From an uncultured Methanosarcinales archaeon (lineage in GTDB: Archaea > Nanobdellota > Nanobdellia > Woesearchaeales > GW2011-AR9): a DNA stretch of 64,000 nt. Shown piece by piece: positions 10,829-60,016 of this stretch. The translations under genes and the position numbers were made by a program. The stretch spans positions 12,907 through 76,906 of the forward strand of contig CAZWBB010000002.1 of assembly GCA_964632045.1 (NCBI GenBank), in the 5' to 3' direction. The first letter of the stretch is position 1. The number at the start of each line of letters is the position of its first letter. Below the pieces are notes generated by a model. That model did not search any database. It saw nothing but the letters and a program-made list of their open reading frames with translations, and had not been told where the DNA came from.

Positions 10829-10998
10829 TGTGTCAAGCTGCTTAAAACCTTTTTAAAAACGTTGTGGAAGATAGGTATTGATGAGTAACTCCAAAAATGG
10901 TTTGGATTTCTTCGGCAATGTCAATTAAAGTGTTTAATTGTTTAATAATTAATATAGATGGAGTCTATGTTGTTCATTCTGGACAGCACTTTAGATTG

Positions 10999-11189
10999 GT
11001 ACGTATTAAGTTTCTTTGAGGAAAACATCACCTTGGCCGCTCACTCGGCATTTTCTAAAGTGTTTCCTTTCACGTATAAGAAGACGTGTTTTGGGAGGGA
11101 AAATGCATCTGACCTGCCTCTTACGAATGGCCTAGCTCGTTCGCCATTGGCCCAGGCGGTGTTGTTTTCCCACCCAACTTAATACGTAC
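10999..11189. mobile_element. MITE-like non-autonomous element, 191 bp
   Basis: Perfect 14-bp terminal inverted repeats GTACGTATTAAGTT (10999-11012) / AACTTAATACGTAC (11176-11189), directly flanked by an 8-bp direct repeat TTAGATTG (10991-10998, 11190-11197). No recognisable transposase inside. Confidence 0.8.
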
Positions 11190-11205
11190 TTAGATTGGCA
11201 AAGTA

Positions 11206-11213
11206 TTTAAATC
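11206..11213 (+). promoter_or_regulatory. Archaeal TATA-like box
   Basis: TTTAAATC 24 nt upstream of ATG 11238, the same spacing as other promoters here. Confidence 0.5.
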
Positions 11214-11237
11214 TCGCTCTTAATTGATCCTGATAGC

Positions 11238-11966
11238 ATGTTACCGACAATTAAGCAGATTCGTGAGAGTTCCAAGACACGACGTTAGGGTTATGAATAC
11301 GTTTTAGATTATTTCGCAAATTATATAGTTAGACTATCCTTATTTTTTGGGATTAGTCCAACAGAACTTAGCTTTTTCTGGGTATTTGCCCAATTCTTTT
11401 CATGTCTATTATTTCTTAAAGGAGATTATTATTATTCATTGTTTGGGATAATAATCTTTCAGTTCATGTTTATTGTGGATTTGTCTGATGGAAAACTTTT
11501 TAGATTCAGAAAGTCCGGCAAGACATATCTTAAGCCATTATTCCCAAAATACTTAGACCGTATGGGCCATTTTGTTAACAACCCGTTCCTATTCTTATGT
11601 CTAGGTTTTGGCTTACTTCATCACAGTCAAACAATTTTTTATTTTTCGCTAGTTGCAGCTTTTTTTTATTTATTGAACAAAGCACTCGCGCTGAATCCTT
11701 CCTGGTACAAATCTCAGGAAGAAAGAGAAATGATCTCTTTGTTAGGTAAATTTTCCAGTATTCGGGACGGAAAATCACTAATCAAAAAGTTGATTTTTGA
11801 TTTTATCAGGATTGAACACATGGGTAATCTTTTGTTTCTTTTGATATTATTTAATTTGGCACATTATGCTATTATGGCTTATGCAATTATTCATTCTTTA
11901 GAGTTTTTACGTAAATTAATCTCTCAAGGGGTTATCTTGTTTGAAGAAGACAAGAAGAGAGGATAA
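11238..11966 (+). pseudogene. CDP-alcohol phosphatidyltransferase-like gene interrupted by an in-frame TAG (11286-11288)
   Basis: Frame from ATG 11238 reads MLPTIKQIRESSKTRR*GYEYVLDYFANYIVRLSLFFGISPTELS... and continues into the 11439 ORF. DLSDGKLFR...YLDRMGH is a degenerate DxxDGxxAR...GxxxD motif. Region is visibly AT-rich. Confidence 0.7.
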
Positions 11967-12047
11967 TTTGAATGTAGTTCTATTGGTCGGTTCTCCCTGT
12001 TATCCAGAGAAAAAAACAGATTGTAGTACCATAATTTTTTATAATGG

Positions 12048-12782
12048 GTGCTTTCTATGGGGCATATGCGAGTCCGAAAAGAAGAATTACATCAAATCAA
12101 TAAGATCAAGTACCAAAAGAATGGGATAATTGGGATAATCACTCGCAGATACCTTTCGACAAGGATCAGCTCTTGGTTGGCATCGACCTCAATTACGCCT
12201 AACCAAGTCACTTTTTTCTCTTTGCTCGTAGGATTGACGGGTGTGTGTTTTCTTTCAACGGGTGGAAGAGTAAATCTGGTTATCGCGGGTGTACTCATCT
12301 TCATTTCTAAAATATTTGATGCAGTTGATGGTGAACTTGCCCGCCTCAAGAAGATGGAGACTGCACGGGGAGCATGGCTTGACGGGATCTCAGACCGTTT
12401 CAAGGAGAACCTGATTTTTTTTGGAATTGCGCTGGGTCTGTACAACCAGACTGGTAATGTGGTTGTCTGGTATTACGCTTTTATCGCTATCATCTCCATT
12501 CACATGCTTTCGATAGTCCTGGAACACACGGGGCGGATGGACAAGAAGATTCTGCAGAAAACGCAGGAAGATACCCTATTGGTAAAATTGGCCAGGAAGC
12601 TGGGAATTAAGCCGCAGTTTCTTGCTCTGCAGGCTGATACTTATCTTTTCATTACCTACATAGCAATCATGCTTAACCAGCTGATGTTCATCCTCTGGTT
12701 CTTCATGATTGTGATGAATCTTTACTGGCTTACTATTGTGGTCCTTGTGTATTTAAAAGGAAGTGGGATTGGGGAAAGATGA
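12048..12782 (+). CDS. CDP-alcohol phosphatidyltransferase family protein (start may be ATG 12057 or 12066)
   Basis: ITPNQVT and an intact DAVDGELAR...GAWLDGISD motif; TM helices. Confidence 0.9.
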   Translation: MLSMGHMRVRKEELHQINKIKYQKNGIIGIITRRYLSTRISSWLASTSITPNQVTFFSLLVGLTGVCFLSTGGRVNLVIAGVLIFISKIFDAVDGELARLKKMETARGAWLDGISDRFKENLIFFGIALGLYNQTGNVVVWYYAFIAIISIHMLSIVLEHTGRMDKKILQKTQEDTLLVKLARKLGIKPQFLALQADTYLFITYIAIMLNQLMFILWFFMIVMNLYWLTIVVLVYLKGSGIGER

Positions 12783-16898: not shown

Positions 16899-18281
16899 TC
16901 AAATATGCTCCCCTTTTTCTTCCAGGAACCGGACATTACTGTAGCGGAGATCTTTATAGTCTGAGATGACCCCTTCATCAAGGGCTTTTTTGATCTCTTG
17001 TATTCCGTCAACCAAGCTGTGATCAGGTTGGAAGCCAAGCGTTTCCCTGATTCTCTTGAAAGATACACGGTAGTTGCGCTTATCCACATCACGATCTTCA
17101 ATAAGTAATGATGCCGTTGGAATCTGCTGCTTCACCAATTCTCCAATTTGGTTGATAGTGTAGTTCTGTACTTCACTTCCCACATTGAAAACATTATTAG
17201 CAACTTTCTCCAACGGGGCTTCTAGAGATAAGATTATTGCTTTTGCCACATCGGCGACGTGGACGTTAGGTCTCCACTGGTCACCTCCAAAGATGGTGAT
17301 CTTACCTTCCTTAACCGCTTTTCCGGTAAGAGTATTAACTACTAAATCAAAACGTGCTCTAGGTGATAAACCATAGACTGTACTTAGCCTTAAAATAGTC
17401 GGAGAAAAATTTTCGTCACTCATCTCCCTGAGGATGTTTTCAGAGTTCAACTTCATCTTTGCATACAACGAAACCGGGTTCACGTGTGATTCTTCATCAA
17501 GAAGTTCTTCCCCTTTGGATGCCCCGTACACGCTGCAGGAAGAAAGGTATACCAAGCGATTGATTTGGTAATGTTTGCAGACTGAAGCTACAAGCATGGT
17601 TGCAAGATAGTTGACATCCTGTGTTGTTTTTGGATCTAGATCGCAAGCGGGGTCTCCTACAAGTTCGGCTAAATGTACTGCTGCATCAACATCTTTGACA
17701 CAGTTGGTCAGAGTTTCCACATGTCGTGTGTCCCCTTTGACGATCTCTAGGTTTGGATCACGAATGTCCTGCAGATGTTCCTTCCCGTAAATAAAAATGT
17801 CGAGTATTCTTACTTTGTATCCTTTTGACAGCAACTTCTTTACTAACACTGAACCAATGTATCCCCCACCTCCGATCACCAGGACTTTGTCTACCGGCTT
17901 GACTTTCAGAGTGCTCCTGGAGAGAAATGATAACCTGTTTACTTCCATCAATGCAAAATCTTGCACAACTTTATCTTTATTCACTATAGGGATACCCAGG
18001 AGCTTCTGTGCTTTGATAAGGTCAATTAGATAATTTTCTTCTGCATCGGTGAAACAGTATATTGGGTGATGGTTCATTATAGAGGATATTTCATCAGAGA
18101 TGTCATTCCCTTTGATGATTCCTCTTCTGATGTCTCCATCAGTGACTACACCAAGCAGTTTTCTATCATCATCTACGACCAGAGCAATTCTTAGCCCGGT
18201 TTTTCCAATGGTACGCATAACTTCTTTTATTGAAGCTTCTTTGTTTACAAGTAATTCATTCAAAGCTATCATTTTGTTCAC
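16899..18281 (-). CDS. CBS-pair + NAD-dependent epimerase/dehydratase (extended SDR) fusion
   Basis: N-terminal CBS (LVVD...GVVTDGDIRR), then GGGGYIG, SSCSVYG, YAKMK. Confidence 0.88.
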   Translation of the reverse strand: MNKMIALNELLVNKEASIKEVMRTIGKTGLRIALVVDDDRKLLGVVTDGDIRRGIIKGNDISDEISSIMNHHPIYCFTDAEENYLIDLIKAQKLLGIPIVNKDKVVQDFALMEVNRLSFLSRSTLKVKPVDKVLVIGGGGYIGSVLVKKLLSKGYKVRILDIFIYGKEHLQDIRDPNLEIVKGDTRHVETLTNCVKDVDAAVHLAELVGDPACDLDPKTTQDVNYLATMLVASVCKHYQINRLVYLSSCSVYGASKGEELLDEESHVNPVSLYAKMKLNSENILREMSDENFSPTILRLSTVYGLSPRARFDLVVNTLTGKAVKEGKITIFGGDQWRPNVHVADVAKAIILSLEAPLEKVANNVFNVGSEVQNYTINQIGELVKQQIPTASLLIEDRDVDKRNYRVSFKRIRETLGFQPDHSLVDGIQEIKKALDEGVISDYKDLRYSNVRFLEEKGEHI

Positions 18282-19863
18282 CTATCTTTTTAAAAAATTC
18301 TTTCACTGATCTGACAACATAATTATATTCCTCAAGATTTATTGCTGCGGACATGGGGAGAGTTAGGACCTTTTTTGATAGATTTTCAGTGATGGGCAAA
18401 TCGTTTTCTTTATAGCCAAATTTTGTCTGGTATAATGTTTTCAGATGCACCGGGTTGAAATAGACTTTTGTCATAATGCCTTTTTCACGCAGGAAATTTT
18501 GCAGAGCATATCTTGTGGCTTGATCCGGTAGGGTGATAGTGTACATCTGATACAGATGTTCATGGGGCGGTGGGGGAAAAGGACACTTTATCTCCCGGCA
18601 TCCAGATAGTTCTTGATTAAGAAACTCTGCCATTTTTTTCCTGATTGCAACAACCCTATCCAATTTATCTAACTGGGAAAAGCCCAGGGCCGCCGAAATT
18701 GTCGACATCCGAAAATTGTAGCCTGCTTCCAGGTAATCGGCATCTTGGGTTGAGGAAAAGTAATCACTATCAGACAGATCGAATCTTCCGTGAGAGCGCA
18801 ATAATTTAATCTTTTCGTATATTCTTTGGTCGTCGGTAACAACAATACCTCCCTCGCCACAGGAAATCACTTTATTCTGGCAGAGGCTAAACATGGCAGC
18901 ATCCCCAAATGTTCCAATTTTCTTTCCGTTGATACTAGCGCCAAGTGATTCAGCTGCATCGTCAAGAAATAACAGGTTATTTTCTACACAGAGTTTCACT
19001 ATCTCCACAGTGTCTCTGGCAGCACAACCGCCATAGTGGACGGGGATGACTGCTTTTGTCCGCGGGCCAATCTTTTTTCTAACATCTTCTACATCCAGTC
19101 CAAATGTATCTGGTTCACATTCAGCAAAAACCGGGATCCCTCCAGCTAAGACTACTGCATTTGCGGTAGCAATGAATGTGAATGAAGGGATTATCACTTC
19201 GTGTCCTTTCACATCACATGCTAGTAGAAGAGTGAGTAAAGCAGATGTTCCTGAACTGAAAGACAATGCATACTTGGTCCCGACCAATTTGATGATCTTC
19301 TTCTCAAATTCATCTATCTCCGGACCAGTTGCCCAAAATGTTCCCCTCTTCAGCACTTCTGTAACAGAGTCGATATCGTGCTGATCTGAGTAAGTTCTGA
19401 AAAGCGGCACTTTCCAGCTATTTGGGCCTATACTTTTTTGTTTCGTAGTAATGTCGGGATTCTCTTCCCTGATTTTTTTTACTACTCTTACTGGTGTTCC
19501 AAAAGCGACTACGTTATCGGGGATATCCTTGTTAACAAAGCTATGGGCGCCAATGATTGAATTTTCGCCGATAGTCACCCCCGGCATTATTGTACTGTGT
19601 GTACCGATGCGGCAATTCCTTTTTAGTGTGATCTTTCCTTTTTTGCAGTCGATGGTACTCTCGCTATAGATGGAACAGTGGCTACCAATCTGCACTTCAT
19701 CTTGGATCTCTACCCCAAATCTAGCATTTATGTAGCAAAGAGCCCCGATGTCAGTCTTCTTACCTAGATTGAGATTTTCTTTTCCTTGCACCATCCAGTT
19801 CCACTTAGTAAGTTTTCCTTCCTCAATTATTGGAGGATTCCAAGCATCAAATCTGTCTTTCAT
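18256..19863 (-). CDS. Hexapeptide-repeat (LbH) acyltransferase + DegT/DnrJ aminotransferase fusion
   Basis: IGTHSTIMPGVTIGENSIIGAHSFVNKD LbH repeats, then a DegT domain with DDAAESLG and the PLP lysine in FSLCQNKVISCGEGG. Confidence 0.9.
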   Translation of the reverse strand: MKDRFDAWNPPIIEEGKLTKWNWMVQGKENLNLGKKTDIGALCYINARFGVEIQDEVQIGSHCSIYSESTIDCKKGKITLKRNCRIGTHSTIMPGVTIGENSIIGAHSFVNKDIPDNVVAFGTPVRVVKKIREENPDITTKQKSIGPNSWKVPLFRTYSDQHDIDSVTEVLKRGTFWATGPEIDEFEKKIIKLVGTKYALSFSSGTSALLTLLLACDVKGHEVIIPSFTFIATANAVVLAGGIPVFAECEPDTFGLDVEDVRKKIGPRTKAVIPVHYGGCAARDTVEIVKLCVENNLLFLDDAAESLGASINGKKIGTFGDAAMFSLCQNKVISCGEGGIVVTDDQRIYEKIKLLRSHGRFDLSDSDYFSSTQDADYLEAGYNFRMSTISAALGFSQLDKLDRVVAIRKKMAEFLNQELSGCREIKCPFPPPPHEHLYQMYTITLPDQATRYALQNFLREKGIMTKVYFNPVHLKTLYQTKFGYKENDLPITENLSKKVLTLPMSAAINLEEYNYVVRSVKEFFKKIGEQNDSFE

Positions 19864-19960
19864 CGTTCTTCCGTCATTTGAATCATTATCATTTTATTAC
19901 GTCTTGGGTTTAATACCCCGTTGCTCTGCTGCGATTGGGATGGTGAATTTTTAGGTATTT

Positions 19961-21823
19961 TCATTTTATTTCTCTCACCGGAGAGAAAGCTTCTGCGAAA
20001 TGGACACCGCTCTCTGATCCCCGCTTCCTGGCGAGTGCTTTGACTATTTCTAATGAACGTGGGTGCGGCAGTTGCCTAATCTCTTGCTTATATAGTTTCA
20101 TGACTTCCAACTTCTTGTCAATGGTATCTGTAATGTCTACAAAGACGAGGGGCACGAATGTATCTAAATGTCTTCCCCATTCCGTTTCTGACAGTGTTTC
20201 ATAAGCAAGAATTTTCTTCACACTGCTTTGCATTGGTCTCATAGCAACTAGTGCGGACTCAAAAACTGATCGGTGGTCTCTATTTAGATCTCCTTTATGA
20301 GGAAGATAGACTTCATCCGGCTCTACTTCGTTGACTACTTTTTTGATTGCGCTATTCAGTTCTTTTTGAGGTACCGTGTCCAATTTGGCAGTAGGATAAT
20401 CCAAGAAGAAAACCTTGCGGATGCCCAAAGATTCTGCAACTCGGTACACTTCTTCTTTTCTTTCTTTTATCGATTCTCTAGACCATTCTGGAAGGTAGGC
20501 TTTAGTGACTACACAAAGGTGTATCTCGTGGCCTTCTTTCACTCTTCGGGCAATTGTTCCTCCACAACCAAGTACTTCATCATCAGGGTGAGGAGCAATC
20601 ACCAGAATTCTTCTAGGTTTTTTTGCATTTGGTTTTTTCTTAGAACTGATCGGTAGGTCATAGGACAGTTGCTTCTGCAACAAATCCAGGTTTGTTTCGA
20701 CCTTGCTTAGGGTATCAGCAATTTTCACGCCAGCGTTACCACCACCATAAGGGTTGACACAGTTCTGTAAAGTTTTTTTAAAATCGGGTGAAAAGGCTTT
20801 TTGTATGGCGGTTGTTATCTCATTATAATCATGATCTACATCAATCACGTTTTGTGCCCTCTCCCGTCCATCCTGTCGTATTCCTATATTCACTACAGGG
20901 AGTCCAAAAGATGAGGTTTCAATGATGGCACAACTTGAATTTCCTACCATTACATCAACATGTTTCAGGAGGCTTAGGAAAATTGAGTGTTCAAGGCTTT
21001 TGAAAAGATGGATTTTGTCTGATTGATTATTGTGTTGTTCTATCACTTCAACGATAGCTCTTCCACCAGCATCTGAGTTGGGGTAAACAACAATTATTTT
21101 TTTTCCAAGGGCAAGTGCTGCCCGCAGAGTTTCCTTCATCTGGTCGGCCGCCTTATCTGGCATTGTTGTGACAGAATGTTGAAGAACAAGAATTGTTGGA
21201 TGTTGCAGTTTGAATCCAAGTTTGTCTTCCAACTGGCTTTTACTAATTATTTCTTCATGTAGTATTGGATCTAGTCCTGGAGCACCAACCACCTGAATTC
21301 TCCAATCGTCTTCCCCCAGCATACGAATTCGTTCTGCGCTCAGTTCTGTTGCTGGGAAGTGGATGTTGGCAAATTTAGTGATGGCGTGTCTAGCTGACTC
21401 ATCAAGACCCCCTTTTGAAACATCTCCCCCATGTATGTGAGCGACGGGAATCCTCATATAAGACGCGGCTATCACTGCAGCTAGTGCTTCTGTCCTGTCT
21501 CCCAAAATCAAAACAAAATCTGGTCTTAGTTCTTCATAACAGCTGCTGAATTCAGTAACACCCTTACCGATGGAACTGGACATGGCGTACGAGGAATCGT
21601 CGTCAATTGGCATGAAAACTTTTTTATCTACATTAAAACCGTCCTGTTCAATTTCTCGATATGTAAGTCCAAACTGTTTATCCAAGTGCATACCTGCCAC
21701 AATGGTCTGAAGTTCCAGCAGCGGGTGCTCTCTAATAGCTTCCATTACCGGCTTAAGTAAACCATATTCTGCTCTTGTTCCAGTTACAACACCGATTCTT
21801 CTCATGATATGTCTCCTTGTCAA
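19961..21823 (-). CDS. neuC: Hydrolysing NDP-sugar 2-epimerase (NeuC/LegG) + PIG-L/LmbE deacetylase fusion
   Basis: VTGTRAEYG, LGDRTE, HIHGGD, GNSS, NIGIRQ; C-terminal APHPDDEVLGCGG...DLNRDH. Confidence 0.9.
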   Translation of the reverse strand: MTRRHIMRRIGVVTGTRAEYGLLKPVMEAIREHPLLELQTIVAGMHLDKQFGLTYREIEQDGFNVDKKVFMPIDDDSSYAMSSSIGKGVTEFSSCYEELRPDFVLILGDRTEALAAVIAASYMRIPVAHIHGGDVSKGGLDESARHAITKFANIHFPATELSAERIRMLGEDDWRIQVVGAPGLDPILHEEIISKSQLEDKLGFKLQHPTILVLQHSVTTMPDKAADQMKETLRAALALGKKIIVVYPNSDAGGRAIVEVIEQHNNQSDKIHLFKSLEHSIFLSLLKHVDVMVGNSSCAIIETSSFGLPVVNIGIRQDGRERAQNVIDVDHDYNEITTAIQKAFSPDFKKTLQNCVNPYGGGNAGVKIADTLSKVETNLDLLQKQLSYDLPISSKKKPNAKKPRRILVIAPHPDDEVLGCGGTIARRVKEGHEIHLCVVTKAYLPEWSRESIKERKEEVYRVAESLGIRKVFFLDYPTAKLDTVPQKELNSAIKKVVNEVEPDEVYLPHKGDLNRDHRSVFESALVAMRPMQSSVKKILAYETLSETEWGRHLDTFVPLVFVDITDTIDKKLEVMKLYKQEIRQLPHPRSLEIVKALARKRGSESGVHFAEAFSPVREIK

Positions 21824-21845
21824 CAGTTACGACTATTTGGGCCTG

Positions 21846-23657
21846 TTAAGAAGAGTCTTCTAACTCGGCCCTCCAAATCCTTAGCTTTTTCCCATTTCTT
21901 TCTATGTAAGCGCCTTTGTAAGGTTTGGATAAAGCTCGTATTTTGTTGTAAATTTGCTCAATGGATTCTTTTTCAAAATCTATTCTATTGCACTCCAGAC
22001 TTGGCTTTTCAAAAACCAAGACATTATTTTCACTCTGAGGAATGCGCTGAGCCTTTCCCAAAGCGATGAGGGGGAAATACTGGACAACCAACTTCTTGCC
22101 AGCTTCAATCACTTTATCATATATGTCCTGAGCATGGTCATTCTTTTCAATTGTAAAATGCTCCTGTCCAATAATATCGCCGTCATCTAACCCTTCGGAT
22201 ACATGGAACAGGGTCAGTCCGGATTTAGTGAAGTTACTAATTACTGAATTGATAATGGGGGCGGGGCCTCGGCCGATTGGCAGAAGAGTGGGATGAAATC
22301 CTATGAATCCGTCACTGGGAAAAGATAAGATCTCTTTGTTAATCACCTGCCGCCAGCCACACATCATAACAAGATCCGGCGTAAGTTGTGAAAGCAACTC
22401 TTTTTCACAATTAATATCTTCTATTTCGTAGACTGGAATACCAAATTCATTCCATTTTCCAACATCAATCCCATCATACATGACCGTTTTTGCTTTTGGA
22501 TTGAGAGTGATGATGGCGCTGATTTCTATCCCCTGCTTCACTGTTTCACTTAATAATTCTTGCCCCAGCTTGTTGGCGGATAGCCAGACTATTTTTTTTG
22601 AATTCTGTGTTTCTCCGATGTGCTCCCACCGCAATAATTGGTCTTTGAGGAGAGGTTTGACGAGCCTTTTCCCAATCAACCAACTAAAATACTTTGGAGG
22701 TAGGCCCGTGCCAGGTCTCTTGATCGTAATTGCTTCCTTTGTAACGATGCTCCCTTCAGGAAAATCATTTTTGGCGACAATACTTTTTCTTATCATTCTG
22801 ATCATGCTTTGTTCAGAATTGTTTGGCTTTTTTTCCGGAATCCCGTGTATTGAATGAATATTACGGATAGAAGTCACCATCTCTCTTAGCTCGTCAGGTT
22901 CTAACGATGCTGCGTGGTCAGGCCCTTTCATCGACTTGTCTAAAGTAAAATGCTTCTCAATACAGACCGCTCCTAAAGAAGCAGCCATTATTGGGACCTG
23001 AAGGCCCATTGTATGGTCTGAATAGCCGATCAAGCAATCTAATTCCTCTTGCATTGTCTTCATCGCTTTTAGGTTCACTTCATTTAATGGGCAGGGATAA
23101 TTGGTTGTACAATGCAACGCAATTACTTTTCTATTTCCAACATTATGGATGGTCTGTAATGCTTCCTTAATTTCCGGTAGCGTTGACATTCCTGTTGCTA
23201 GGATTATTGGTTTACCATAACGTGCAATTGTTTGCAGGAATGGAAGATTGGTCAAATCTCCTGATCCAATCTTATAACAAGGCATCAAATCGTTTAGAAA
23301 TTCAATTGCATCTGCAGTGTGAGGTGTTGACAAAAAAATAATGCCTTTGTAGTCGCAATATTCTTTAAGTTCAGCGAAGTGATGATAGCTGAGTTCTAGT
23401 TTTTTCAGCATTTCTAATTGTGATTCATTGCCCCCAAGATTTCTTTCCTGATATGAAGCCCGAGGAGCCCCTGTCGTGACAAGGTTCTCAGATTTAAATG
23501 TCTGGAATTTGACAGCATCTACTCCTGTCTCAGCAGCCGCATCCACCAGTTTCTTAGCTATTTCTATACTACCGTTGTGATTCACTCCTGCTTCTGCAAT
23601 GATAAAAATCGGTTTTTCTTTACCAACGATCCTATCAGCTATGTTTATTTGTTCCAT
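21846..23657 (-). CDS. neuB: Nonulosonate synthase (NeuB/LegI, with SAF domain) + formyltransferase fusion
   Basis: IAEAGVNHNG, KFQTF, KIGSGD, GYSDHT, EKHFTLD; C-terminal FHPTLLPIGRGPAP...GLDDGD. True start likely ATG 23657 (MEQINI), not 23768. Confidence 0.9.
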   Translation of the reverse strand: MEQINIADRIVGKEKPIFIIAEAGVNHNGSIEIAKKLVDAAAETGVDAVKFQTFKSENLVTTGAPRASYQERNLGGNESQLEMLKKLELSYHHFAELKEYCDYKGIIFLSTPHTADAIEFLNDLMPCYKIGSGDLTNLPFLQTIARYGKPIILATGMSTLPEIKEALQTIHNVGNRKVIALHCTTNYPCPLNEVNLKAMKTMQEELDCLIGYSDHTMGLQVPIMAASLGAVCIEKHFTLDKSMKGPDHAASLEPDELREMVTSIRNIHSIHGIPEKKPNNSEQSMIRMIRKSIVAKNDFPEGSIVTKEAITIKRPGTGLPPKYFSWLIGKRLVKPLLKDQLLRWEHIGETQNSKKIVWLSANKLGQELLSETVKQGIEISAIITLNPKAKTVMYDGIDVGKWNEFGIPVYEIEDINCEKELLSQLTPDLVMMCGWRQVINKEILSFPSDGFIGFHPTLLPIGRGPAPIINSVISNFTKSGLTLFHVSEGLDDGDIIGQEHFTIEKNDHAQDIYDKVIEAGKKLVVQYFPLIALGKAQRIPQSENNVLVFEKPSLECNRIDFEKESIEQIYNKIRALSKPYKGAYIERNGKKLRIWRAELEDSS

Positions 23658-25474
23658 GCCATTCCACCTGTCCCAGCTGTTTCTCTCCTGATCAACAATA
23701 AATCTCCAAAATACATCATGTCTAGCTTGGAATTGTCCATAACTTCTATCGCATCTTGAGCAGAACACACTACTGGGGACCCATGTATGTTTAGAGAAGT
23801 ATTTAATACAGCTCCAATACCAGTTAATTTTTCAAATTCTTTAATCAGGTCGTAGTATTGCGGATTAATCTCTTTCTTGACCATCTGGGGTCTTGCAGTT
23901 AAGTCGGCAGGATGCAATGAAGCTAGAATCTCCTTGCGGCCAAGTGGAGTAGAATCAAAGCCCAGAGTCATGAAAGGAGAATATAGGTTTTTTGGATTGA
24001 CGACATAATCGTTAACCCTTTCATGTAAAATTGAGGGAGTGAAAGGCATCCAGAAATCACGAAACTTAATTTGGCTGTTGATTTTTTGAATTATGTGTGG
24101 ATTTGCTGGATTGGCAAGGATGGACCTATTGCCAAGGGCTCTCGCTCCAAATTCCATTCTGCCCCGGCAAATACCTACCACTTTGCCTTCAACAAGTCTT
24201 TCTGCGATGTATCTGTGGTCAATATTCCTAAGTACCTCGTACCTATCCGCTGCACCCGTTTCCTGCAAAGCGCTAAGTATACTTGCTTCAGTAATATCCG
24301 GACCCAAATATGCGTCGCGCAAAGGTTGAATAGTACTTTTTTCGATGTTATTATCTTCACAATGCTTACTCATCATACGATAGCAAGCTCCCAGAGCATT
24401 GGATTCGTCAGCTGGACTGGCACTAACAAAAAATTCTTCGACTTCAGGCATATTAGAAATTGCCATGTTAAGCTTGATGTTCATAGCGACGCCACCACTG
24501 AAGACAACCCTGCGGATTCCCGTCCTGTTGATTGCATTACGGATCCATTGCACAAAGATTTCTTCAACCATCTTTTGTAGTGCACCTGCAATTCCGTCAA
24601 ATCGACATCCCTCTAACTTTTCTTTAAAGTGAAAGTAAAGGTCACTAGGTTTTTTGTTCCACTGAAATTCAAGGCCCTCCACTTTCATCAGTTCTGAAAA
24701 AACTTCATACGCTCGCTCCAGTTCTTTTACATTTGAATAAGGTGCGAGACCCATCACTTTGTACTCATGTTCAAATGGTTTCATCCCCAAAAGTAAGGTG
24801 ATGTACCGATAGATCCGTGCTATCTGGCAGTTATCGGTCTGGAAAATTCTGGTGATCTTGTTATCTCTGGCTACACTGACCGTAGCGTTGAGACCGTCAC
24901 CAAACCCATCAGCTGTAAGGATTAGGGTATCTGCTCTAAATGGAGAGCTAAAATAAGCATAGTTGCTGTGGCACTCGTGGTGGTCAATGAATTCCACCTT
25001 CTCCGGAGAGATGTTAAGATGACGGGTTGTCGCTACCGTCCGCATCTTTTTTGACAAATTGGGGTCGGAAAAGTTGTTTTCATTCATCAAACTGAAATCA
25101 TAGTCCATCTCTTGAACACCTTTTCTTTCTTCGATTCCTTTGATATGTTCCCATTCATTTACGGGCTTTTTATCAATGAGTAAAGGTTTGAAATACTCAT
25201 GCTGTTCCCTTACATGGTCGTTGATAGAGTATGTGCACATTTTCTTTATTCTGAGCCAGGCCATGTTTGTGTGGAGAGTCGAAAATGCTACTTTGTCTAT
25301 TTGATCTGGAGAGATGCCCGCAAGTTCCAAGCATTTTTCAACTGCTTGTTTTGAGTACCCCGTGTCGTTTTTCTTCCTAGAAAGACGTTCTCTACTGACT
25401 GCAGCGACAATCTTTCCATCTTTCATAATGGCGGCAGTAGAATTATGGCCTTCTTCAATCCCTAATATTATCAT
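23645..25474 (-). CDS. Carbamoyltransferase (NodU/CmcH family)
   Basis: GIEEGHNS, DHHECH, EYKVMGLAPY, SGGVAMN, EFGARALGNRS, KFRDFWMPF, LNTSLN. Confidence 0.92.
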   Translation of the reverse strand: MIILGIEEGHNSTAAIMKDGKIVAAVSRERLSRKKNDTGYSKQAVEKCLELAGISPDQIDKVAFSTLHTNMAWLRIKKMCTYSINDHVREQHEYFKPLLIDKKPVNEWEHIKGIEERKGVQEMDYDFSLMNENNFSDPNLSKKMRTVATTRHLNISPEKVEFIDHHECHSNYAYFSSPFRADTLILTADGFGDGLNATVSVARDNKITRIFQTDNCQIARIYRYITLLLGMKPFEHEYKVMGLAPYSNVKELERAYEVFSELMKVEGLEFQWNKKPSDLYFHFKEKLEGCRFDGIAGALQKMVEEIFVQWIRNAINRTGIRRVVFSGGVAMNIKLNMAISNMPEVEEFFVSASPADESNALGACYRMMSKHCEDNNIEKSTIQPLRDAYLGPDITEASILSALQETGAADRYEVLRNIDHRYIAERLVEGKVVGICRGRMEFGARALGNRSILANPANPHIIQKINSQIKFRDFWMPFTPSILHERVNDYVVNPKNLYSPFMTLGFDSTPLGRKEILASLHPADLTARPQMVKKEINPQYYDLIKEFEKLTGIGAVLNTSLNIHGSPVVCSAQDAIEVMDNSKLDMMYFGDLLLIRRETAGTGGMAWNK

Positions 25475-26825
25475 TTTTTATTACCTCCTCACTATCTAAT
25501 ATATTTGTTTGTTGGTTCTCCAATGGAGATGAACCAGGAGCATTGGTGACACTTGCTATTCTCACACTCTCAGGGAGACTCGATACATACGCCGGCAATT
25601 CATCACTGATCCCTCCTATATCGTAGACTGCTGACCTTAATCTCCACACTCCATTTACCTTTTTCCAAATATGGGGTGATCTAAATTTGTCGATGATTTT
25701 CCAGAATTCCACTTCTGTGATATTCAGGTAATCAAGGAAAAATTTGAAATGTCTGGCGGGAAACTCTCCATCATACCTTTTCACAAGAGAGACCCCTTCT
25801 TCTCGGGAGATGTGATCATCCCTAATCTCATGTGCGGCGTCTGAAGTGGCTCTGGCTATCCCAAACTTGATGAAAGCTAGATAGAAATGGAATCCATCCA
25901 TTTGGTCATCCAGGCTAGCGTATTTGGAATAGGTGCCTTCTGACCTCCCTTCAGGATTAGCTTCAAAGCCAGTATGTTCGGCAGCAAGATAATAATTCTC
26001 CTGAGGTACCCACTTCTTGTAGTAAGAAAACCAGTGGAATTCGATCCCCCTGTTCCGTAAGTCTTCAATATTTGGGGGACGGTAGAAAGTCAAGTCAGAT
26101 TCATCAAAATCATCCCTGGAGAAGTAGTCTGTCTCTTCCAGGCCATATCTTATCAAGTCATCTACTGTAACGCCTTTGAAGTATTGTTCTGTCCAGATTT
26201 CAAGGGGCATACCCCGGAGGTTATACACTCGCGGGTCGCCGCTGTATTCGGCCTCACCATTTTCTCCAAAAAATACTAGTTTGATATCAAACTTCTGGGC
26301 AATGTGAAACGCATAACAGACCTGACCGTAAGTGAATGGCTGCCAGGCATCTCCAATCGCTTCAAAGGCAATTCTAGACAATTTCCGGTGGAAACGTCCG
26401 TTCTGCCAGGCCATCAGATTATTGAAACCTCCAATTTTGAGGAATTGTCTGAAGTTCTTGTACCCAATGTTGGTGTACTCGAATGGAGCCCAGGTGATGG
26501 TAAGCGGATGCATGCCATATTTGTGTTTCAGTTCCCAGGCGACCCGGGCACTGTCCTTTTCCCCGCTTGCTGGAACGACAACATCGAATCTTCCGTCATT
26601 CCTACGATACTTATCACACAACTCCTTCAATTCCTGCTCTCGCTGAGTCCAATTGATAACTTGATCCTTAATGTGAGTGAAATTACAAGCACCGCATACG
26701 CCTTTATCATCCCACCTGATGCGTGGTCTTTGGTTGGAAACAACGCATCTTTTACAAAATTTGATCTCTTTGGGTAAGATTGGCAGCTGTTTATCCAATA
26801 TTTTTTGACTTACCATTATAGACAC
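25455..26825 (-). CDS. N-acetyl sugar amidotransferase (WbuX/PseA/PtmG type)
   Basis: CKRC...CGAC, PP-loop-like SGEKDS, GENGEAEY, YSKYASLDD; precedes nothing else but lies in an operon with HisH/HisF-like partners. Confidence 0.88.
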   Translation of the reverse strand: MSIMVSQKILDKQLPILPKEIKFCKRCVVSNQRPRIRWDDKGVCGACNFTHIKDQVINWTQREQELKELCDKYRRNDGRFDVVVPASGEKDSARVAWELKHKYGMHPLTITWAPFEYTNIGYKNFRQFLKIGGFNNLMAWQNGRFHRKLSRIAFEAIGDAWQPFTYGQVCYAFHIAQKFDIKLVFFGENGEAEYSGDPRVYNLRGMPLEIWTEQYFKGVTVDDLIRYGLEETDYFSRDDFDESDLTFYRPPNIEDLRNRGIEFHWFSYYKKWVPQENYYLAAEHTGFEANPEGRSEGTYSKYASLDDQMDGFHFYLAFIKFGIARATSDAAHEIRDDHISREEGVSLVKRYDGEFPARHFKFFLDYLNITEVEFWKIIDKFRSPHIWKKVNGVWRLRSAVYDIGGISDELPAYVSSLPESVRIASVTNAPGSSPLENQQTNILDSEEVIKNDNIRD

Positions 26826-26885
26826 ACCTCTTTCACTTTCGTGGCATTATCTTGTGTTTTCCCATCCTCTCTTGACACAGTGACG

Positions 26886-27602
26886 CTACACTCCGTTTTG
26901 TTCGCAAAAAACTTTAAGCATACCTAGCCCCACCGGGCCGCTTTTCTCTGGATGGAACTGAGTACCAGTTACGTTTGCTTTTTTCACAACAGCGCAGAAC
27001 TCTTGTTCTCCATATCTACACACTGCCACTGTCTCCTCCTGATTTCTTGGGATGGGAAAAAGGGAATGCACAAAGTAAACATTACTTCCTGGTTCTGTCT
27101 TCTCAAGCAGGTTGCCGGCCCATACACCAAGGGGAGGAGGATTGCTTTTGGAATGCAATTCATTCCAGCCCATATGAGGAATCTTATAGCCTTGGATTAG
27201 GGCTTCGTCCGGTGGTTTGAAGTGGACGACTTTCCCTGGTATCAGGTTAAGGCCTTCATGAGTTCCGAATTCTTCACTCTCAGAGAAGAGCATCTGCATA
27301 CCAAGGCATATTCCAAGTAGTGGCGTCCCGCAACGGATTTTCTCTTTAATCGGCTCCACTAATCCGCGTTGGCGGAGTCCGCTCATCCCATCTTTGAACG
27401 CTCCGATACCAGGTAGGATCAGGCAGCGGGCAGCATAAATCTCTTCAGGGGTAACAATAACCTTGGTTGTTTTCCCGAGTTTCTGGAATGCTTTGCTGAC
27501 GCTCTTTAGATTGTTGATACCGTAATCGATTATGCTAATGTCTGGGAGGCTGCTAGCTAGTGATCTTTCATGATTCTTATCTGTAATTTGGTTATTAATC
27601 AT
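26886..27602 (-). CDS. HisH-like glutamine amidotransferase (WbuY type)
   Basis: IIDYG, PGIGAF, GICLGMQ (catalytic Cys), HMGWN, QFHPEKS. Confidence 0.9.
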   Translation of the reverse strand: MINNQITDKNHERSLASSLPDISIIDYGINNLKSVSKAFQKLGKTTKVIVTPEEIYAARCLILPGIGAFKDGMSGLRQRGLVEPIKEKIRCGTPLLGICLGMQMLFSESEEFGTHEGLNLIPGKVVHFKPPDEALIQGYKIPHMGWNELHSKSNPPPLGVWAGNLLEKTEPGSNVYFVHSLFPIPRNQEETVAVCRYGEQEFCAVVKKANVTGTQFHPEKSGPVGLGMLKVFCEQNGV

Positions 27603-28375
27603 TTTCTAGATGCGATTCCCCTGGTTGATAAGTGGTTCTTTATTTCAGATATTGTGTTCTTGTTGTAATGTAGAAGGGAAGCGATAGCAATGGAGTCCAC
27701 GGAGCATTCTTTCATACACAGGGATATGTCCTCTAAGCAGCCTGCTCCTCCAGAGATAACTATGGGAATCGCGACTGCGGATGCAACCTGGTTGACTATT
27801 TCAAGGTCGAAGCCTTTCTGTGTGCCCTCCTGATCAATTGAGGTTAGAAGTATTTCACCAGCTCCCCTGCGCTCAATCTCTTTAGCCCACTGCACAACGT
27901 CCAAACCGGTCCTTTCTCTTCCATTGTCTGTATAAGCTTCCCACTTGCCATCAGCGACCTTTTTTGCTTCAATTGAAGCGACGATGCACTGCGAACCGAA
28001 CATCTGTGATGCTTCATCAACAAACTCTGGTTTTTTTGTCAGCGCCGTGTTGATGGCAACTTTATCTGCACCTGCTTTGAGGAACTCCCTGATATCGTCC
28101 AGTGTTCTAACTCCTCCACCTACGGTGAAAGGGATGAATATTTTATCTGAAGCCTCATGCACGACATTCAGCAGGTTGTCTCTCCCATAGAGGCTGGCGA
28201 CGATGTCAATATAGATAAGTTCATCTGCCCCTTCCAGGTAGTATTTCTCTGCAAGCATCCCTGGTTTTCCAACAATTCTCAAGCATTCTAGGTGTACACC
28301 TTTGATTACATTAGGTCCTTTGACGTCCAGTCTGGCGATCACCCGTGCTTTTTTCATCTTCAAATGCAGGTCCAA
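27599..28375 (-). CDS. HisF-like cyclase subunit (WbuZ type)
   Basis: ARLDVKGPNVIKG, PFTVGGG, AGADKV, GAGEILLTSID, SGGAG. Confidence 0.9.
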   Translation of the reverse strand: MDLHLKMKKARVIARLDVKGPNVIKGVHLECLRIVGKPGMLAEKYYLEGADELIYIDIVASLYGRDNLLNVVHEASDKIFIPFTVGGGVRTLDDIREFLKAGADKVAINTALTKKPEFVDEASQMFGSQCIVASIEAKKVADGKWEAYTDNGRERTGLDVVQWAKEIERRGAGEILLTSIDQEGTQKGFDLEIVNQVASAVAIPIVISGGAGCLEDISLCMKECSVDSIAIASLLHYNKNTISEIKNHLSTRGIASRK

Positions 28376-29169
28376 CCCCCATCGACCATGAAAGTGGTTC
28401 CCGTTATGTAGGACGCTGCGTCCGAAGCAAGAAAGAGAGCTGCTGCGGCAATCTCATCTGCTTTTCCCATTCTTCTCAAAGGAGTCCTCTGTTCGTAGCT
28501 TTTTACAAAAGTTGGATTTTGATTATCAAAGATACCCCCAGGACAAAGACAATTGACGCGAATACCATACTTCCCATAATACGATGCAGCGTAGCGGGAG
28601 AAGTTTATGGTTCCTCCTTTTACAGCGGCGTATGCTGCCGGGCAGGTCATTTCTGTTCCTGAATAAACTTCAAAATCCGGACCTACAACACCATAAGTTG
28701 AACCAAGGTTAATGATGCTCCCTTTTACATTATGCTCTTTCATAAGTTCAGCCACACGTACTGTGAGGAGACAATAGGAATTCATCTGGGTATTTACATT
28801 CTCCTGCCAGGAAGAAGCTCGGACATTTTCTACTTTATTACCCCAATCGTCAGTGCGGGGATAGGCCGTGTTCACCCAGACATCTATCAGGCCCACATCT
28901 CTGAAAATTGTGTCTAGGCGATTTTTGTATTCTTCTGTTTTTGTGACGTCAAAATGAATAAAAATGATGTTAAGACCTTCCGCCATAGATTCTTGTTGAA
29001 AGCGAGCCCCATTTTCCACTGAAATATCTAAAACTAACACTTTTGCACCAGCTTGAGCAAGGGCTACAGCAGTTTCTTTTCCTAGTAATCCCAAACCTCC
29101 AGCGACTACTGCTACTTTACCATCAAGTCTGAATTTTGTGAGATAATTGTGTCTGACGGTGCCGTTCAT
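28360..29169 (-). CDS. SDR oxidoreductase (PtmA-like)
   Basis: AGGLGLLG, NTAYP, STYG, YAAVK, NCLCPGG. Confidence 0.88.
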   Translation of the reverse strand: MNGTVRHNYLTKFRLDGKVAVVAGGLGLLGKETAVALAQAGAKVLVLDISVENGARFQQESMAEGLNIIFIHFDVTKTEEYKNRLDTIFRDVGLIDVWVNTAYPRTDDWGNKVENVRASSWQENVNTQMNSYCLLTVRVAELMKEHNVKGSIINLGSTYGVVGPDFEVYSGTEMTCPAAYAAVKGGTINFSRYAASYYGKYGIRVNCLCPGGIFDNQNPTFVKSYEQRTPLRRMGKADEIAAAALFLASDAASYITGTTFMVDGGWTCI

Positions 29170-30863
29170 GGTTGAAAAAATCCCCTCTCAGTTAAAAATT
29201 CAATGAATTTGAAATCCAGTTCGTTGTCAATATCTACCGCTGAAATTTGATCCATAATATGGATGGCAGTTTTTTTTGAGGATAATACTGAATCGTTTTT
29301 TTCATCAAGCAGAAACTTGCGGTCGAAGAAATAGATTGAAGCATTAAGGTCATATGTCTTCGGAGCATCCTGTCTCCTGAATACGCCCTCGGCCGGTTTT
29401 TTGGAGACTTCAGCATAACCTTCTTTGTTGAGTTCAACCATGTTGAAATACGGGTTCTTGCGTGCTTCTACTACTGAGAAGAGGACATCGGCTTGTTTCT
29501 CCAAAAAGGTTTTCATACATTTGTTCAGGTCTTCTATTGTTCTCACTGGGCTGGTCACATCAAGATCGATAATAATATCATATGTTTCTCCATACTTTTT
29601 TTCACATGAACGCAAAGCATGCCTAATCACGGGGACTTTTCCGATAGTGTCAGTAGCCAGTTCCACTGGGCGAATGAAGGGCACTTCTGCTCCATGCTTC
29701 AGTGCTGTATCTGCAATTCGGTTAGAATCAGTAGAACAGATGATTCTTTTTGCTTTTCCCCATCTCTTAGCTGTTTCGATCGTAAAAGAAATCAGGGGCT
29801 TACCAGATAACTCTCGGATATTCTTGTCTTTTACTCCTTTGGATCCTCCCCTGGCACAGATGGTGATCAGGATGTTCTTAGGGGCTACCATTGCAGTCTT
29901 TATTACATTTTCATTCACCAGCCCTTGTTCATTCACACTAGATACAATCTTAAAGACATCAAGTGCTTCATCCAGACCATTCATTATTGATTGATTTCCT
30001 AAGTTTGAAAAAAAGTACTTCAGTTGGGAGAGATACATCTCATCCCTCTCAAAGTCAAATTCAATCACTTCCTGGTTGTCAGGCTCCCGTATTATTGTGA
30101 TTTTGTTGGATATAAGGTCTGCAACTATTGTATGGTCCAAGAAATCCAATATGATCTCACGGCGGTTTAATCGGCTATGAAAATCTATATGCAGATTGCA
30201 TCTTGTTCCATTGGCATTGAATAGAACGTCGGCGAAGTCATTAGCATCTACAGTCACATCACTCAATTTCATTGCGTTCACTTTAGTATCTTCTATTTTT
30301 CCCAACAGAAAATGCAGATAGTCGAATTCATGGGACAGTTCCATTATGACCCCTCCCCCCCGACCTTTGTACGCGCTGTAATGTTGCAGATGGTCGATTC
30401 CAGGTCTCCAATCAGGTAGGTATGAGGATGCGTTCACTTTCACGTGAAGTGGCCTGTTCTTCTCCAAGTCCTCCTGCAAGTGTTCTTTCAACCAGCGGAT
30501 AACCGGATGAAACCTAAGGCAGTAAGCAACGTATACTGTTATTCCTTGCTCTTTGACAATCCTGGAAAAATCACTGATTTTTTCCATGGAGTGAGACAGT
30601 GGTTTCTCAATGAACAGATGAATCCCTTTTTTTGCACAGAAAGACGCATATTTGAGATGTTTATCCGTTGGGTTAGTTATGAAAGCGACGTCAGGAGATA
30701 TACTATCAATTTCTTCTAAAGCAAATATCTCCTTAATACCCAGCTGGTTTGGTTCAGCCTTTGGATCGGAGCGGAAAGCGTAGAGATCATAATCAAAGTG
30801 CTGCTGGAGCAGCCTGGCATGTCGTTGTCCGATGGATCCAAGCCCAAAAAACAGGATTTTCAT
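29166..30863 (-). CDS. Gfo/Idh/MocA oxidoreductase + CMP-nonulosonate synthetase (NeuA/LegF) fusion
   Basis: GLGSIG and FIEKP, then ICARGGSKGVKDKN, STD, TSPVR, DIDNELD. Confidence 0.9.
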   Translation of the reverse strand: MKILFFGLGSIGQRHARLLQQHFDYDLYAFRSDPKAEPNQLGIKEIFALEEIDSISPDVAFITNPTDKHLKYASFCAKKGIHLFIEKPLSHSMEKISDFSRIVKEQGITVYVAYCLRFHPVIRWLKEHLQEDLEKNRPLHVKVNASSYLPDWRPGIDHLQHYSAYKGRGGGVIMELSHEFDYLHFLLGKIEDTKVNAMKLSDVTVDANDFADVLFNANGTRCNLHIDFHSRLNRREIILDFLDHTIVADLISNKITIIREPDNQEVIEFDFERDEMYLSQLKYFFSNLGNQSIMNGLDEALDVFKIVSSVNEQGLVNENVIKTAMVAPKNILITICARGGSKGVKDKNIRELSGKPLISFTIETAKRWGKAKRIICSTDSNRIADTALKHGAEVPFIRPVELATDTIGKVPVIRHALRSCEKKYGETYDIIIDLDVTSPVRTIEDLNKCMKTFLEKQADVLFSVVEARKNPYFNMVELNKEGYAEVSKKPAEGVFRRQDAPKTYDLNASIYFFDRKFLLDEKNDSVLSSKKTAIHIMDQISAVDIDNELDFKFIEFLTERGFFQP

Positions 30864-36763: not shown

Positions 36764-37450
36764 ATGGAAAATACTAAGCATAAGGTGACGGTGGTAATAC
36801 CTGCATTCAATGAGGAAGAGGTTATCGGTGAGACTATTGAAAGGGTGAAACCATTTTGTGATGATATCATTGTTGCCTTGGCAAAACGGTCCAGCGATGG
36901 TACTGCGGATGTTGCCCGTTCTTATGGTGTCAGAGTCATCAGAGATCATGGGAAAGGGAAAGGGGATGGGATGAGGTGTGCAATAAGCTGTATTACGGAA
37001 GGAATTATCGTGTTCATTGATGCTGATGGTTCCCATATTCCGGAAGATATCCCAAAAATTGTCCAGCCTCTTCAGGAAGGAAAAGCTGAGATGGTAATTG
37101 CCTCCCGATTCTTGGGAGGATCAGAGGAGTTGCATGGGGATTTTGAGAAATTCCTCAGGATGTTCTTTTCGATGTGTATTGCGCAGATCATCAACTGGAG
37201 ATTTAAGACTGCAATAATGGACACACAAAATGGCTTTCGGGCAATAAGGGCGGATGTGGCCAGGAAATTGCCGTTAAAGTCTAAGCATACTGAAGTTGAG
37301 ACTGAGATGGACATGAAGTGCTTCCAGAGGGGATACAGGATATTGGAGGTGCCTAGTATGGAACTGTCAAGAGCAGCAGGTGCTTCTAACATTTCTTTAT
37401 GGAAGCATGGCTGGCGTTATGCTTGGACCGTGTTTGAGAATTTATTTTAA
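36764..37450 (+). CDS. GT2 polyprenol-phosphate glycosyltransferase (DPM1-like)
   Basis: IPAFNEE, SSDGT, GKGDG, IDADGSH, ASRF, DTQNGFRA. Confidence 0.9.
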   Translation: MENTKHKVTVVIPAFNEEEVIGETIERVKPFCDDIIVALAKRSSDGTADVARSYGVRVIRDHGKGKGDGMRCAISCITEGIIVFIDADGSHIPEDIPKIVQPLQEGKAEMVIASRFLGGSEELHGDFEKFLRMFFSMCIAQIINWRFKTAIMDTQNGFRAIRADVARKLPLKSKHTEVETEMDMKCFQRGYRILEVPSMELSRAAGASNISLWKHGWRYAWTVFENLF

Positions 37451-37457
37451 TGTGACA

Positions 37458-45268: not shown

Positions 45269-45364
45269 ATGGAGATTTCTCGATAATTCTGCTTTTAAAA
45301 TTAATGCAATACAGATATTCTTCCATCCGTGGATAGAACTCTCTTATATTGACGAATACAAAAA

Positions 45365-45372
45365 TTTATATA
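45365..45372 (+). promoter_or_regulatory. Archaeal TATA-like box
   Basis: TTTATATA 23 nt upstream of ATG 45396. Confidence 0.55.
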
Positions 45373-45395
45373 GTAGGCACTGCAGGAATCAACCC

Positions 45396-59998: not shown

Positions 59999-60016
59999 TA
60001 TTGACCATCCAAAAAA

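Follow-up and report, generated by a model that had tools for sequence, protein, structure and literature searches.

Deacetylase and formyltransferase domains fused to NeuC and NeuB in an archaeal nonulosonic-acid operon: a candidate acetyl-to-formyl exchange

The S-layer N-glycan of Halorubrum sp. PV6 carries 5-N-formyl-legionaminic acid, and the genes are arranged in the order legC-legB-legF-legG-FMT HrrPV6_1050-neuD-...-legI, the formyltransferase (FMT) gene being co-transcribed; HrrPV6_1052, which lies between neuD and legI, is not described in that paper (PMC6137143). Candidatus Kuenenia stuttgartiensis has been reported to make CMP-nonulosonates in which one amine is free and another N-formylated, and its legionaminic acid (Leg)-like cluster holds deacetylase and formyltransferase genes among its leg/neu genes (bioRxiv 10.64898/2026.04.20.719630); tailoring there would be on-pathway, because the CMP-activated nonulosonate already bears the modifications. 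A tailoring role for a deacetylase/formyltransferase pair, encoded by separate genes, had thus been suspected before in clusters of the Leg type. Here both activities are described as C-terminal domains of two consecutive pathway enzymes, NeuC/LegG and NeuB/LegI, in a 64,000-nucleotide stretch of DNA from an uncultured marine archaeon (the window; assembly GCA_964632045.1, contig CAZWBB010000002.1, positions 12,907 to 76,906), and this fused form is new. The occurrence of N-formyl-legionaminic acid in a Halorubrum N-glycan, cited as established in the first-pass annotation of the window, is borne out by the published work (PMC6137143).

The overall reading proposed, with a probability of roughly 60%, is that an N-acetyl group would be removed on-pathway by the deacetylase domain (PIG-L) and the freed amine re-formylated by a formyltransferase of a clade with a G-x-H motif, and that the fusions are merged neighbouring genes.

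Two fusion genes and their active sites

Both fusion genes lie on the minus strand. The first (19961..21823) is a single open reading frame (ORF) of 620 aa, in which a NeuC/LegG hydrolysing NDP-sugar 2-epimerase domain (aa 8–372, 20708..21802) is followed by a PIG-L/LmbE-family zinc deacetylase domain (aa 405–620, 19964..20611). The epimerase part matches Pfam Epimerase_2 (aa 29–372, E 4.6e-82) and NCBIfam TIGR03568 (NeuC_NnaA) over the full length of the model (positions 1–365), with 453.4 bits against an equivalog cut-off of 235.9; the Pfam PIG-L match covers aa 407–526 (E 8e-28, 97.9 bits, cut-off 28.2). The second gene (21846..23657) is a single ORF of 603 aa from the ATG at 23657 and joins NeuB nonulosonate synthase and SAF domains (aa 17–347, 22617..23609) to a formyl-tetrahydrofolate (formyl-THF) transferase domain of the 'G-F-H-P-T-L-L-P' clade (aa 354–603, 21849..22598). 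This start was chosen as NeuB homologues align from there; a longer frame opening with GTG extends to 23768. Pfam NeuB (aa 37–272, E 7.6e-95) and SAF (aa 291–347) are matched, and the synthase scores 448.6 bits against NCBIfam TIGR03569 (NeuB_NnaB, aa 17–341; equivalog cut-off 399.65) and stays under the cut-off for PseI (288 versus 340). The C-terminal part matches Formyl_trans_N (aa 420–526, E 1.8e-18, 67.4 bits, cut-off 26.1) and a short Formyl_trans_C (aa 557–602, 36.8 bits, cut-off 21.1). These domain scores are far above chance level, and the first-pass description of consecutive genes with added C-terminal PIG-L and formyl-THF transferase domains holds exactly at these coordinates.

The linkers are short (about 30 aa between NeuC and PIG-L, about 8 aa between NeuB and FMT). 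Unfused homologues of the two tailoring domains begin MKILVIAP... and MGLLWLSANK, and the window reads RRILVIAPHPDDE and KKIVWLSANK; both fusions are taken as genuine because the start Met of the homologues is gone at each junction. Logan contigs from 2 further seawater samples span both junctions and agree with the window throughout (0 differences, 0 gaps), at a depth of only ~3–6x. An assembly artefact or a frameshift is ruled out by these exact contigs together with the loss of the original start codons, and both fusions are real.

In the deacetylase domain the metal/base residues H-P-D-D-E and D-H are intact, and the corresponding positions (H27, D29, D30, E31, D131 and H132 in domain-segment numbering) are invariant in 53 homologues. 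Both the Pfam match and the metal/base motif assign the domain to the PIG-L/LmbE zinc deacetylases. Its nearest solved relatives are a diacetylchitobiose deacetylase (8bgn), BshB (6p2t) and TT1542, all of which are known to remove the 2-N-acetyl group from GlcNAc-type residues.

In the Protein Data Bank the FMT domain matches best the methionyl-tRNA formyltransferase Fmt (4iqf, E 9e-29, 104 bits), then ArnA (2e-25, 93 bits), and more weakly PseJ (6ci2, 60 bits). The catalytic His and Asp and the folate-binding (S/T)LLP motif are kept. Known sugar N-formyltransferases have an Asn-His-Asp catalytic triad, on which no useful citable statement turned up in our literature search; Gly takes the place of this Asn in every member of the clade, that of the window included, so that the window reads I-G-F-H-P-T-L-L-P versus i-N-v-H-a-S-L-L-P in Fmt/ArnA. 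G104, F105, H106 and D142 are invariant in the alignment (A1), the clade has 50 invariant columns, and G-F-H-P-T-L-L-P-x-G-R-G is invariant across it; a haloarchaeal homologue has G-M-H. An invariant S-A-N loop close to the N-terminus may correspond to the G-S-N loop with which PurN binds phosphate. The other formyltransferase of the window (59171-59998) keeps the canonical N-A-H. Two familiar identities were rejected for the fused domain: that of the cell's Met-tRNA formyltransferase (TIGR00460, 127 bits, below the cut-off of 201.5; the genome is archaeal) and that of ArnA (NF005998, 131 bits, below the cut-off of 777). The clade probably still uses formyl-THF, because it is repeatedly fused or adjacent to FolD; these fusions and neighbours give indirect support to 10-formyl-THF as its donor.

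The deacetylase/formyltransferase pair across genomes

One genome per species was scanned, and 57 FMT loci were obtained, whose gene content was then read with hidden Markov models built for this analysis. The loci were divided into a close clade (FMT at least 45% identical to that of the window; 31 loci) and a distant set (G-F-H FMTs, 27–36% identical; 26 loci). PIG-L accompanies FMT at 27 of the 31 close-clade loci, within 1.5 kb at 26, and the 4 loci without it all have FMT at a contig end. NeuB is present at 23 of these loci, NeuC at 24, DegT at 22, a small acyltransferase at 20 and FolD at 10, the usual orders being NeuB-PIGL-FMT-NeuC or NeuB-FMT-NeuC-PIGL. The hosts are archaeal (Woesearchaeota, Nanoarchaeia, Iainarchaeota, Hadarchaeota and methanogens) and bacterial (candidate phyla radiation (CPR) phyla, Margulisiibacteriota, WOR-3 and Omnitrophota). 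An action of the tailoring domains on unrelated substrates, which the first-pass annotation had named as refuting its reading, is contradicted by this placement of FMT and PIG-L beside or between NeuB and NeuC (23–27 of 31 loci).

At the distant loci, PIG-L is found in 22 of 26 (within 1.5 kb in 20), NeuB and NeuC in 0, DegT in 9, a small acyltransferase in 4 and FolD in 1; the hosts include Planctomycetota, Colwellia and Bacteroidota, among others. The Colwellia pair is accompanied by a PglD-type acyltransferase, DegT, a MaoC dehydratase and a phosphoglycosyl transferase, a bacillosamine-type context, and in WOR-3 and one Planctomycete the pair lies among unrelated genes. Since the pair persists without NeuB and NeuC, it behaves as a self-contained unit, and its staying together outside nonulosonate clusters would fit a cassette for exchanging acetyl for formyl.

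Stand-alone FMT(G-F-H)/PIG-L pairs occur in Planctomycetota (L041-L047, L053, L056 and others) with NeuB, NeuC and aminotransferase genes absent within 10 kb; the neighbours of the L053 pair are a TIM-barrel AP_endonuc_2 protein and a C39-like peptidase. Three WOR-3 loci (L030, L032 and L035, ~9995-12450) have a triad of FMT(G-F-H), GNAT and PIG-L amid housekeeping genes (BirA-like, pantothenate kinase, TsaB, FBPase), glycan genes being absent nearby, and an FMT-GNAT fusion (P0250) falls in the same subclade. The substrate of this triad may be a small molecule, by analogy with mycothiol/bacillithiol-type routes, which the deacetylase and GNAT recall.

The fusions were also sought elsewhere, as the first-pass annotation had advised. 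NeuC-PIGL recurs, in proteins P0123 (from a Deltaproteobacteria metagenome-assembled genome (MAG), 41% identity over 99%) and P0127. For the NeuB-FMT order, the best 120 hits in a 5.8-billion-protein collection and the best 150 of 1.84 billion representatives gave no example besides the protein of the window itself. The reversed order, FMT-NeuB, is a single case (P0260), regarded as an independent event because its FMT is just 24% identical and has the canonical Asn (N-x-H). A search with the FMT domain returned relatives at 47–59% identity fused to NeuC (P0242, P0245) or FolD (P0247-9), further partners being GT2, GNAT and a second Formyl_trans_N domain. The FMT tree requires seven architecture changes among seven architectures and pairs the window FMT with an unfused Woesearchaeota gene as its sister.

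NeuB is a hub of other fusions in uncultured lineages, including a double NeuB-NeuA protein of 963 aa, methyltransferase-NeuB, NeuB-NeuC, and NeuA-NeuB in both orders (P0263, P0265, P0256/P0259/P0271, P0252/P0284).

Proposed exchange and alternative explanations

In the proposed route, NDP-GlcNAc would be dehydrated, transaminated and N4-acylated; PIG-L would take off an N-acetyl group, most probably the 2-N-acetyl inherited from GlcNAc, whose nitrogen ends up as N5, and the 10-formyl-THF transferase of the 'G-x-H' clade would formylate the freed amine. With NeuC, NeuB and NeuA this would yield a CMP-5-formamido-7-acylamido legionaminic-type acid, which the WbuX/HisH/HisF set and the carbamoyltransferase of the operon may modify further. 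The exchange could take place on an NDP-hexose, a free hexose, a nonulosonate or a CMP-nonulosonate; because some FMT/PIG-L pairs occur without NeuB and NeuC, a hexose is favoured as the substrate, probably one linked to a nucleotide. An ancestral order NeuB, FMT, NeuC, PIGL would have given NeuB-FMT and NeuC-PIGL through loss of stop/start junctions, and the fusions would enforce co-expression and equal stoichiometry. On-pathway de-N-acetylation and re-formylation had been put forward in the first-pass annotation, and comparative genomics supports the idea well: membership of the pathway and the FMT/PIG-L pairing are shown, and from them we infer the chemistry, namely the exchange as such, its site at N5, the point of the pathway at which it happens and an active Gly variant.

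Several points weigh against this reading. Activity or mechanism may differ in the FMT clade, where Gly throughout occupies the position of the catalytic Asn, and we know of no characterised member of the clade. The characterised sugar N-formyltransferases known to us all act on an NDP-sugar amine installed by DegT, not on one unmasked by deacetylation. The distant loci were partly retrieved through the GFHP motif, by which the constant Gly is true there by construction, although the PIG-L adjacency is not. In a Deltaproteobacteria MAG (GCA_016180855.1; L002/L003) a NeuC-PIGL fusion has no FMT within 10 kb; PIG-L is therefore not always feeding an FMT, and the freed amine there must have another fate. 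The operon sequence was absent from metatranscriptomes of the same studies.

It is unlikely, though the best of the alternatives, that the two domains have separate roles, FMT formylating the aminotransferase-made 4-amine (the future N7) in the manner of PseJ, VioF and ArnA, and PIG-L freeing the 2-N (the future N5), which would be left free or re-acylated by the hexapeptide acyltransferase. The matched solved sugar N-formyltransferases (PseJ 6ci2, WlaRD, VioF, ArnA) are all known to use aminotransferase-derived amines; the Kuenenia products have one free amine and one formyl; the DegT, PglD-type acyltransferase and MaoC dehydratase beside the Colwellia pair suggest another acyl group on one nitrogen; and a NeuC-PIGL fusion without FMT, as in L002, would suit such a division. 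What this leaves unexplained is the near-obligate adjacency of FMT and PIG-L, even where there is no aminotransferase within 10 kb. The acyltransferase is, moreover, fused to the aminotransferase in the window and in a related operon (L010, below), and among comparable archaeal clusters just one has a product of determined structure, in which the formyl group is on N5 (PMC6137143).

Still less probable is a channelling complex between the two fusion proteins, as suggested in the first-pass annotation, in which a free-sugar intermediate would pass from NeuC to PIG-L to FMT to NeuB and for which the fusions would have been selected. The pairing in the window suits that linear order if the exchange takes place on a free hexose between NeuC and NeuB, the linkers are short, and fusions recur in the module. 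The partners vary, however, in close relatives. A Woesearchaeota relative (L001/L029), whose locus has VTC-DUF4956-CotH neighbours in common with the window, shows the opposite pairing, NeuA-NeuB-PIGL with FMT-NeuC, followed by a 5-formyl-THF cyclo-ligase-FolD fusion. In a MAG labelled Methanosarcinales (L010) the fusions are FMT-NeuC and acyltransferase (AcT)-DegT, with PIG-L, NeuB, Gfo and NeuA separate, while all ten genes of the operon are collinear with those of the window (L010 1900-15700, 47–76% protein identity); this suggests either that the whole operon was passed laterally from one archaeal lineage to a distant one or that the contig was mis-binned. The L010 junction reads NeuB-TGA-AGA-ATG-FMT in one frame where the window reads through, so that the NeuB/FMT junctions differ by a lone TGA, and at another locus (L007) NeuC and PIG-L lie in one frame with a single TAA between them. 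Every fusion found brings together genes that lie directly side by side in unfused relatives, and in most relatives the four genes are separate. The host genome has merged other adjacent genes (AcT-DegT, Gfo-NeuA, pyruvate kinase-ATP sulfurylase, APS kinase-sulfotransferase, FolD-PurN-like), a sign that the merging of neighbours is habitual in this lineage, and distant FMT/PIG-L pairs manage without NeuB or NeuC. Channelling is not upheld on these grounds, and the argument that a fusion partner marks the consecutive reaction step was dropped, since partners swap among relatives. The fusions are best read as merged neighbouring genes, not as a purpose-built channel; together with the shuffled relatives they are excellent evidence for joint action of the four activities, and they are silent on step order and on a selected channel.

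It is very improbable that the FMT-like domain is no formyl donor enzyme at all (but lacks activity, plays a structural part, hydrolyses formyl-THF or transfers some other group): G-F-H does stand where Fmt/ArnA and the window's other formyltransferase have N-x-H, but His, Asp and (S/T)LLP are invariant within a strongly conserved clade, fusion or adjacency to FolD and 5-formyl-THF cyclo-ligase is repeated, and the FMT of a Halorussus cluster carries G-M-H, N-formyl legionaminic acid being made by its relative Halorubrum sp. PV6.

Two of the loci compared above have further genes of their own. Past the cyclo-ligase-FolD fusion, L001 (12046-20371) holds genes for an ACP synthase, an AMP-binding enzyme, an Fe-dependent alcohol dehydrogenase and LuxE/LuxC-like acyl-protein synthetase/reductase; these genes may supply an unusual N-acyl group. 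The neighbours at L002/L003 are a second NeuC, a PglD-type acyltransferase, two WbuX paralogues, HisF/HisH, WbqC, a B12-radical SAM protein and a methyltransferase.

N-acyl decoration of sialic-acid-like sugars sets surface charge, virus/phage recognition and immune recognition. The fusions and their shuffled relatives provide strong genomic evidence for an N5 acetyl-to-formyl exchange by PIG-L and an Asn-less FMT, and a conserved NeuB-PIGL-FMT-NeuC module is defined in many uncultured archaea and bacteria. To what was already suspected of the unfused pair, the comparison would add a portable conserved cassette, the Asn-less formyltransferase and a natural domain shuffling that ties the pair to the pathway. 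Culturable haloarchaeal carriers (Halorussus caseinilyticus) and compact two-protein constructs make the cassette tractable, and the enzymes would serve chemo-enzymatic synthesis of N-formyl nonulosonates. A wider proposal is offered tentatively: the pair may be a portable N-acetyl-to-N-formyl cassette for 2-acetamido sugars, carried from DPANN archaea and haloarchaea to CPR and Planctomycetota, and its formyltransferase the first class to act on a deacetylation-unmasked amine, without the canonical Asn and possibly on a non-nucleotide intermediate between NeuC and NeuB. Were such an intermediate to be true, the fusions of the window would mark the true step order.

Operon setting and comparison with known systems

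The fusion genes belong to a set of ten, tightly packed on the minus strand from 30863 down to 16899. A PtmA-like SDR and a Gfo/Idh/MocA oxidoreductase fused to a CMP-nonulosonate synthetase (NeuA/LegF) occupy 28360..30863 and are followed by a putative acetamido-to-acetamidino set at 25455..28375, comprising a WbuX amidotransferase with HisH-like and HisF/WbuZ-like proteins (TIGR03573, 324 bits; TIGR01855; TIGR03572, 276 bits), and by a NodU/CmcH-type carbamoyltransferase at 23645..25474 (Pfam Carbam_trans_N and Carbam_trans_C; 65% identity in L010). On the other side of the fusion genes are a 535-aa protein (18256..19863; Pfam Hexapep, DegT), in which a small left-handed-helix (hexapeptide) acyltransferase is fused to a DegT/LegC-type aminotransferase, and a CBS-domain and SDR nucleotide-sugar dehydratase/epimerase (16899..18281; Pfam CBS, Epimerase), presumed to perform the 4,6-dehydratase step. 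The latter is a weak match to LegB (84 bits, cut-off 475), and its counterpart in the collinear operon of L010 is 61% identical; the aminotransferase scores 228 against the LegC cut-off of 420. In 20 of 31 related modules the small acyltransferase has a gene to itself; in L010 it is fused.

With a dehydratase, an aminotransferase with acyltransferase, a hydrolysing NeuC, NeuB and a CMP-synthetase, the operon (16899-30863, minus strand) is predicted to be of the legionaminic-acid type and to form the only nonulosonic-acid pathway of this archaeal marine genome. The genome has one NeuB, one hydrolysing-type NeuC and one NeuA, so all nonulosonate flux would pass through both fusion proteins; two genes for FolD and one for FolC are present as well, by which formyl-THF should be available in the host. 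The operon is surrounded by genes for an STT3 oligosaccharyltransferase, several glycosyltransferases, a flippase-like protein, PAPS synthesis, sulfotransferases and FolC, and by this gene content is assigned to an archaeal N-glycosylation locus. The host genome is a 2.2-Mb MAG from seawater, 89% complete, with an archaeal ribosomal protein S3Ae; the genomes of its relatives measure 0.7–1.7 Mb. The MAG has no 16S gene and the window no Rfam matches. Vertical inheritance of the module was rejected: a related FMT occurs in just 1 of 40 relatives, and the module was therefore acquired laterally.

Several other genes of the host touch on formyl and amino-sugar metabolism. One of the two FolD genes is a 520-aa frame (C13:23670-25229, plus strand) with the FolD domain fused to a PurN-like Formyl_trans_N domain, and the other, plain FolD lies at C13:16092-16979. 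In the window (59171-60778, minus strand), the second formyltransferase (275 aa, canonical N-A-H / D triad) is directly upstream of a GT2 glycosyltransferase resembling ArnC/AglJ (polyprenyl-phosphate formamido-sugar or hexose transferases); the two could be an ArnA/ArnC-like N-formyl sugar branch in the same glycan locus. Three more DegT-family aminotransferases (45228-46508, 48145-49311 and 50450-51625) and two radical SAM genes (37380-38834 and 52208-53656) are also present, so several other amino-sugar branches are likely.

Halorubrum sp. PV6 resembles the window in having an archaeal N-glycan locus with a Leg pathway, FMT beside legG and a small NeuD-like acyltransferase. Its glycan includes sulfated/phosphorylated hexuronic acid, and the window has PAPS-synthesis and sulfotransferase genes and STT3. 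Unlike those of the window, the PV6 genes are unfused, and the paper discusses no deacetylase. A haloarchaeal counterpart with a deacetylase is found on a plasmid of Halorussus caseinilyticus DT72 (NZ_CP119810.1, 344396-363136; L064), where neuC, PIG-L (P2T60_RS19250) and neuB lie next to a G-M-H formyltransferase (P2T60_RS19240); the region also holds a canonical N-L-H formyltransferase, Gfo, an SDR, NeuA, a polysaccharide deacetylase and DegT. In Kuenenia, in contrast to the window, the deacetylase and the formyltransferase are separate, and no acyltransferase is mentioned.

PseJ (6ci2/6ci4), ArnA, WlaRD, VioF and Rv3404c share with the window FMT the Formyl_trans_N fold, the His/Asp pair, (S/T)LLP and a role in amino-sugar tailoring. 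The PseJ/ArnA-type enzymes have Asn-His-Asp, an aminotransferase-made amine of an NDP-sugar as substrate and no known deacetylase partner, whereas the clade of the window has Gly and an obligatory PIG-L partner. The archaeal diacetylchitobiose deacetylase (8bgn/3we7), BshB (6p2t) and TT1542 (1uan) have the same fold and the same H-P-D-D-E...D-H residues as the window PIG-L, which matches the solved deacetylases with E-values of only 1e-19 to 1e-12; we know of none of these PIG-L/LmbE deacetylases in a nonulosonate or bacillosamine pathway, or fused to NeuC or NeuB. The NeuA-NeuB, NeuB-NeuC and methyltransferase-NeuB proteins of DPANN, CPR and other uncultured lineages are likewise merged neighbours. 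Those NeuA/NeuB/NeuC fusions join core steps of the pathway, whereas the fusions of the window add tailoring enzymes to it.

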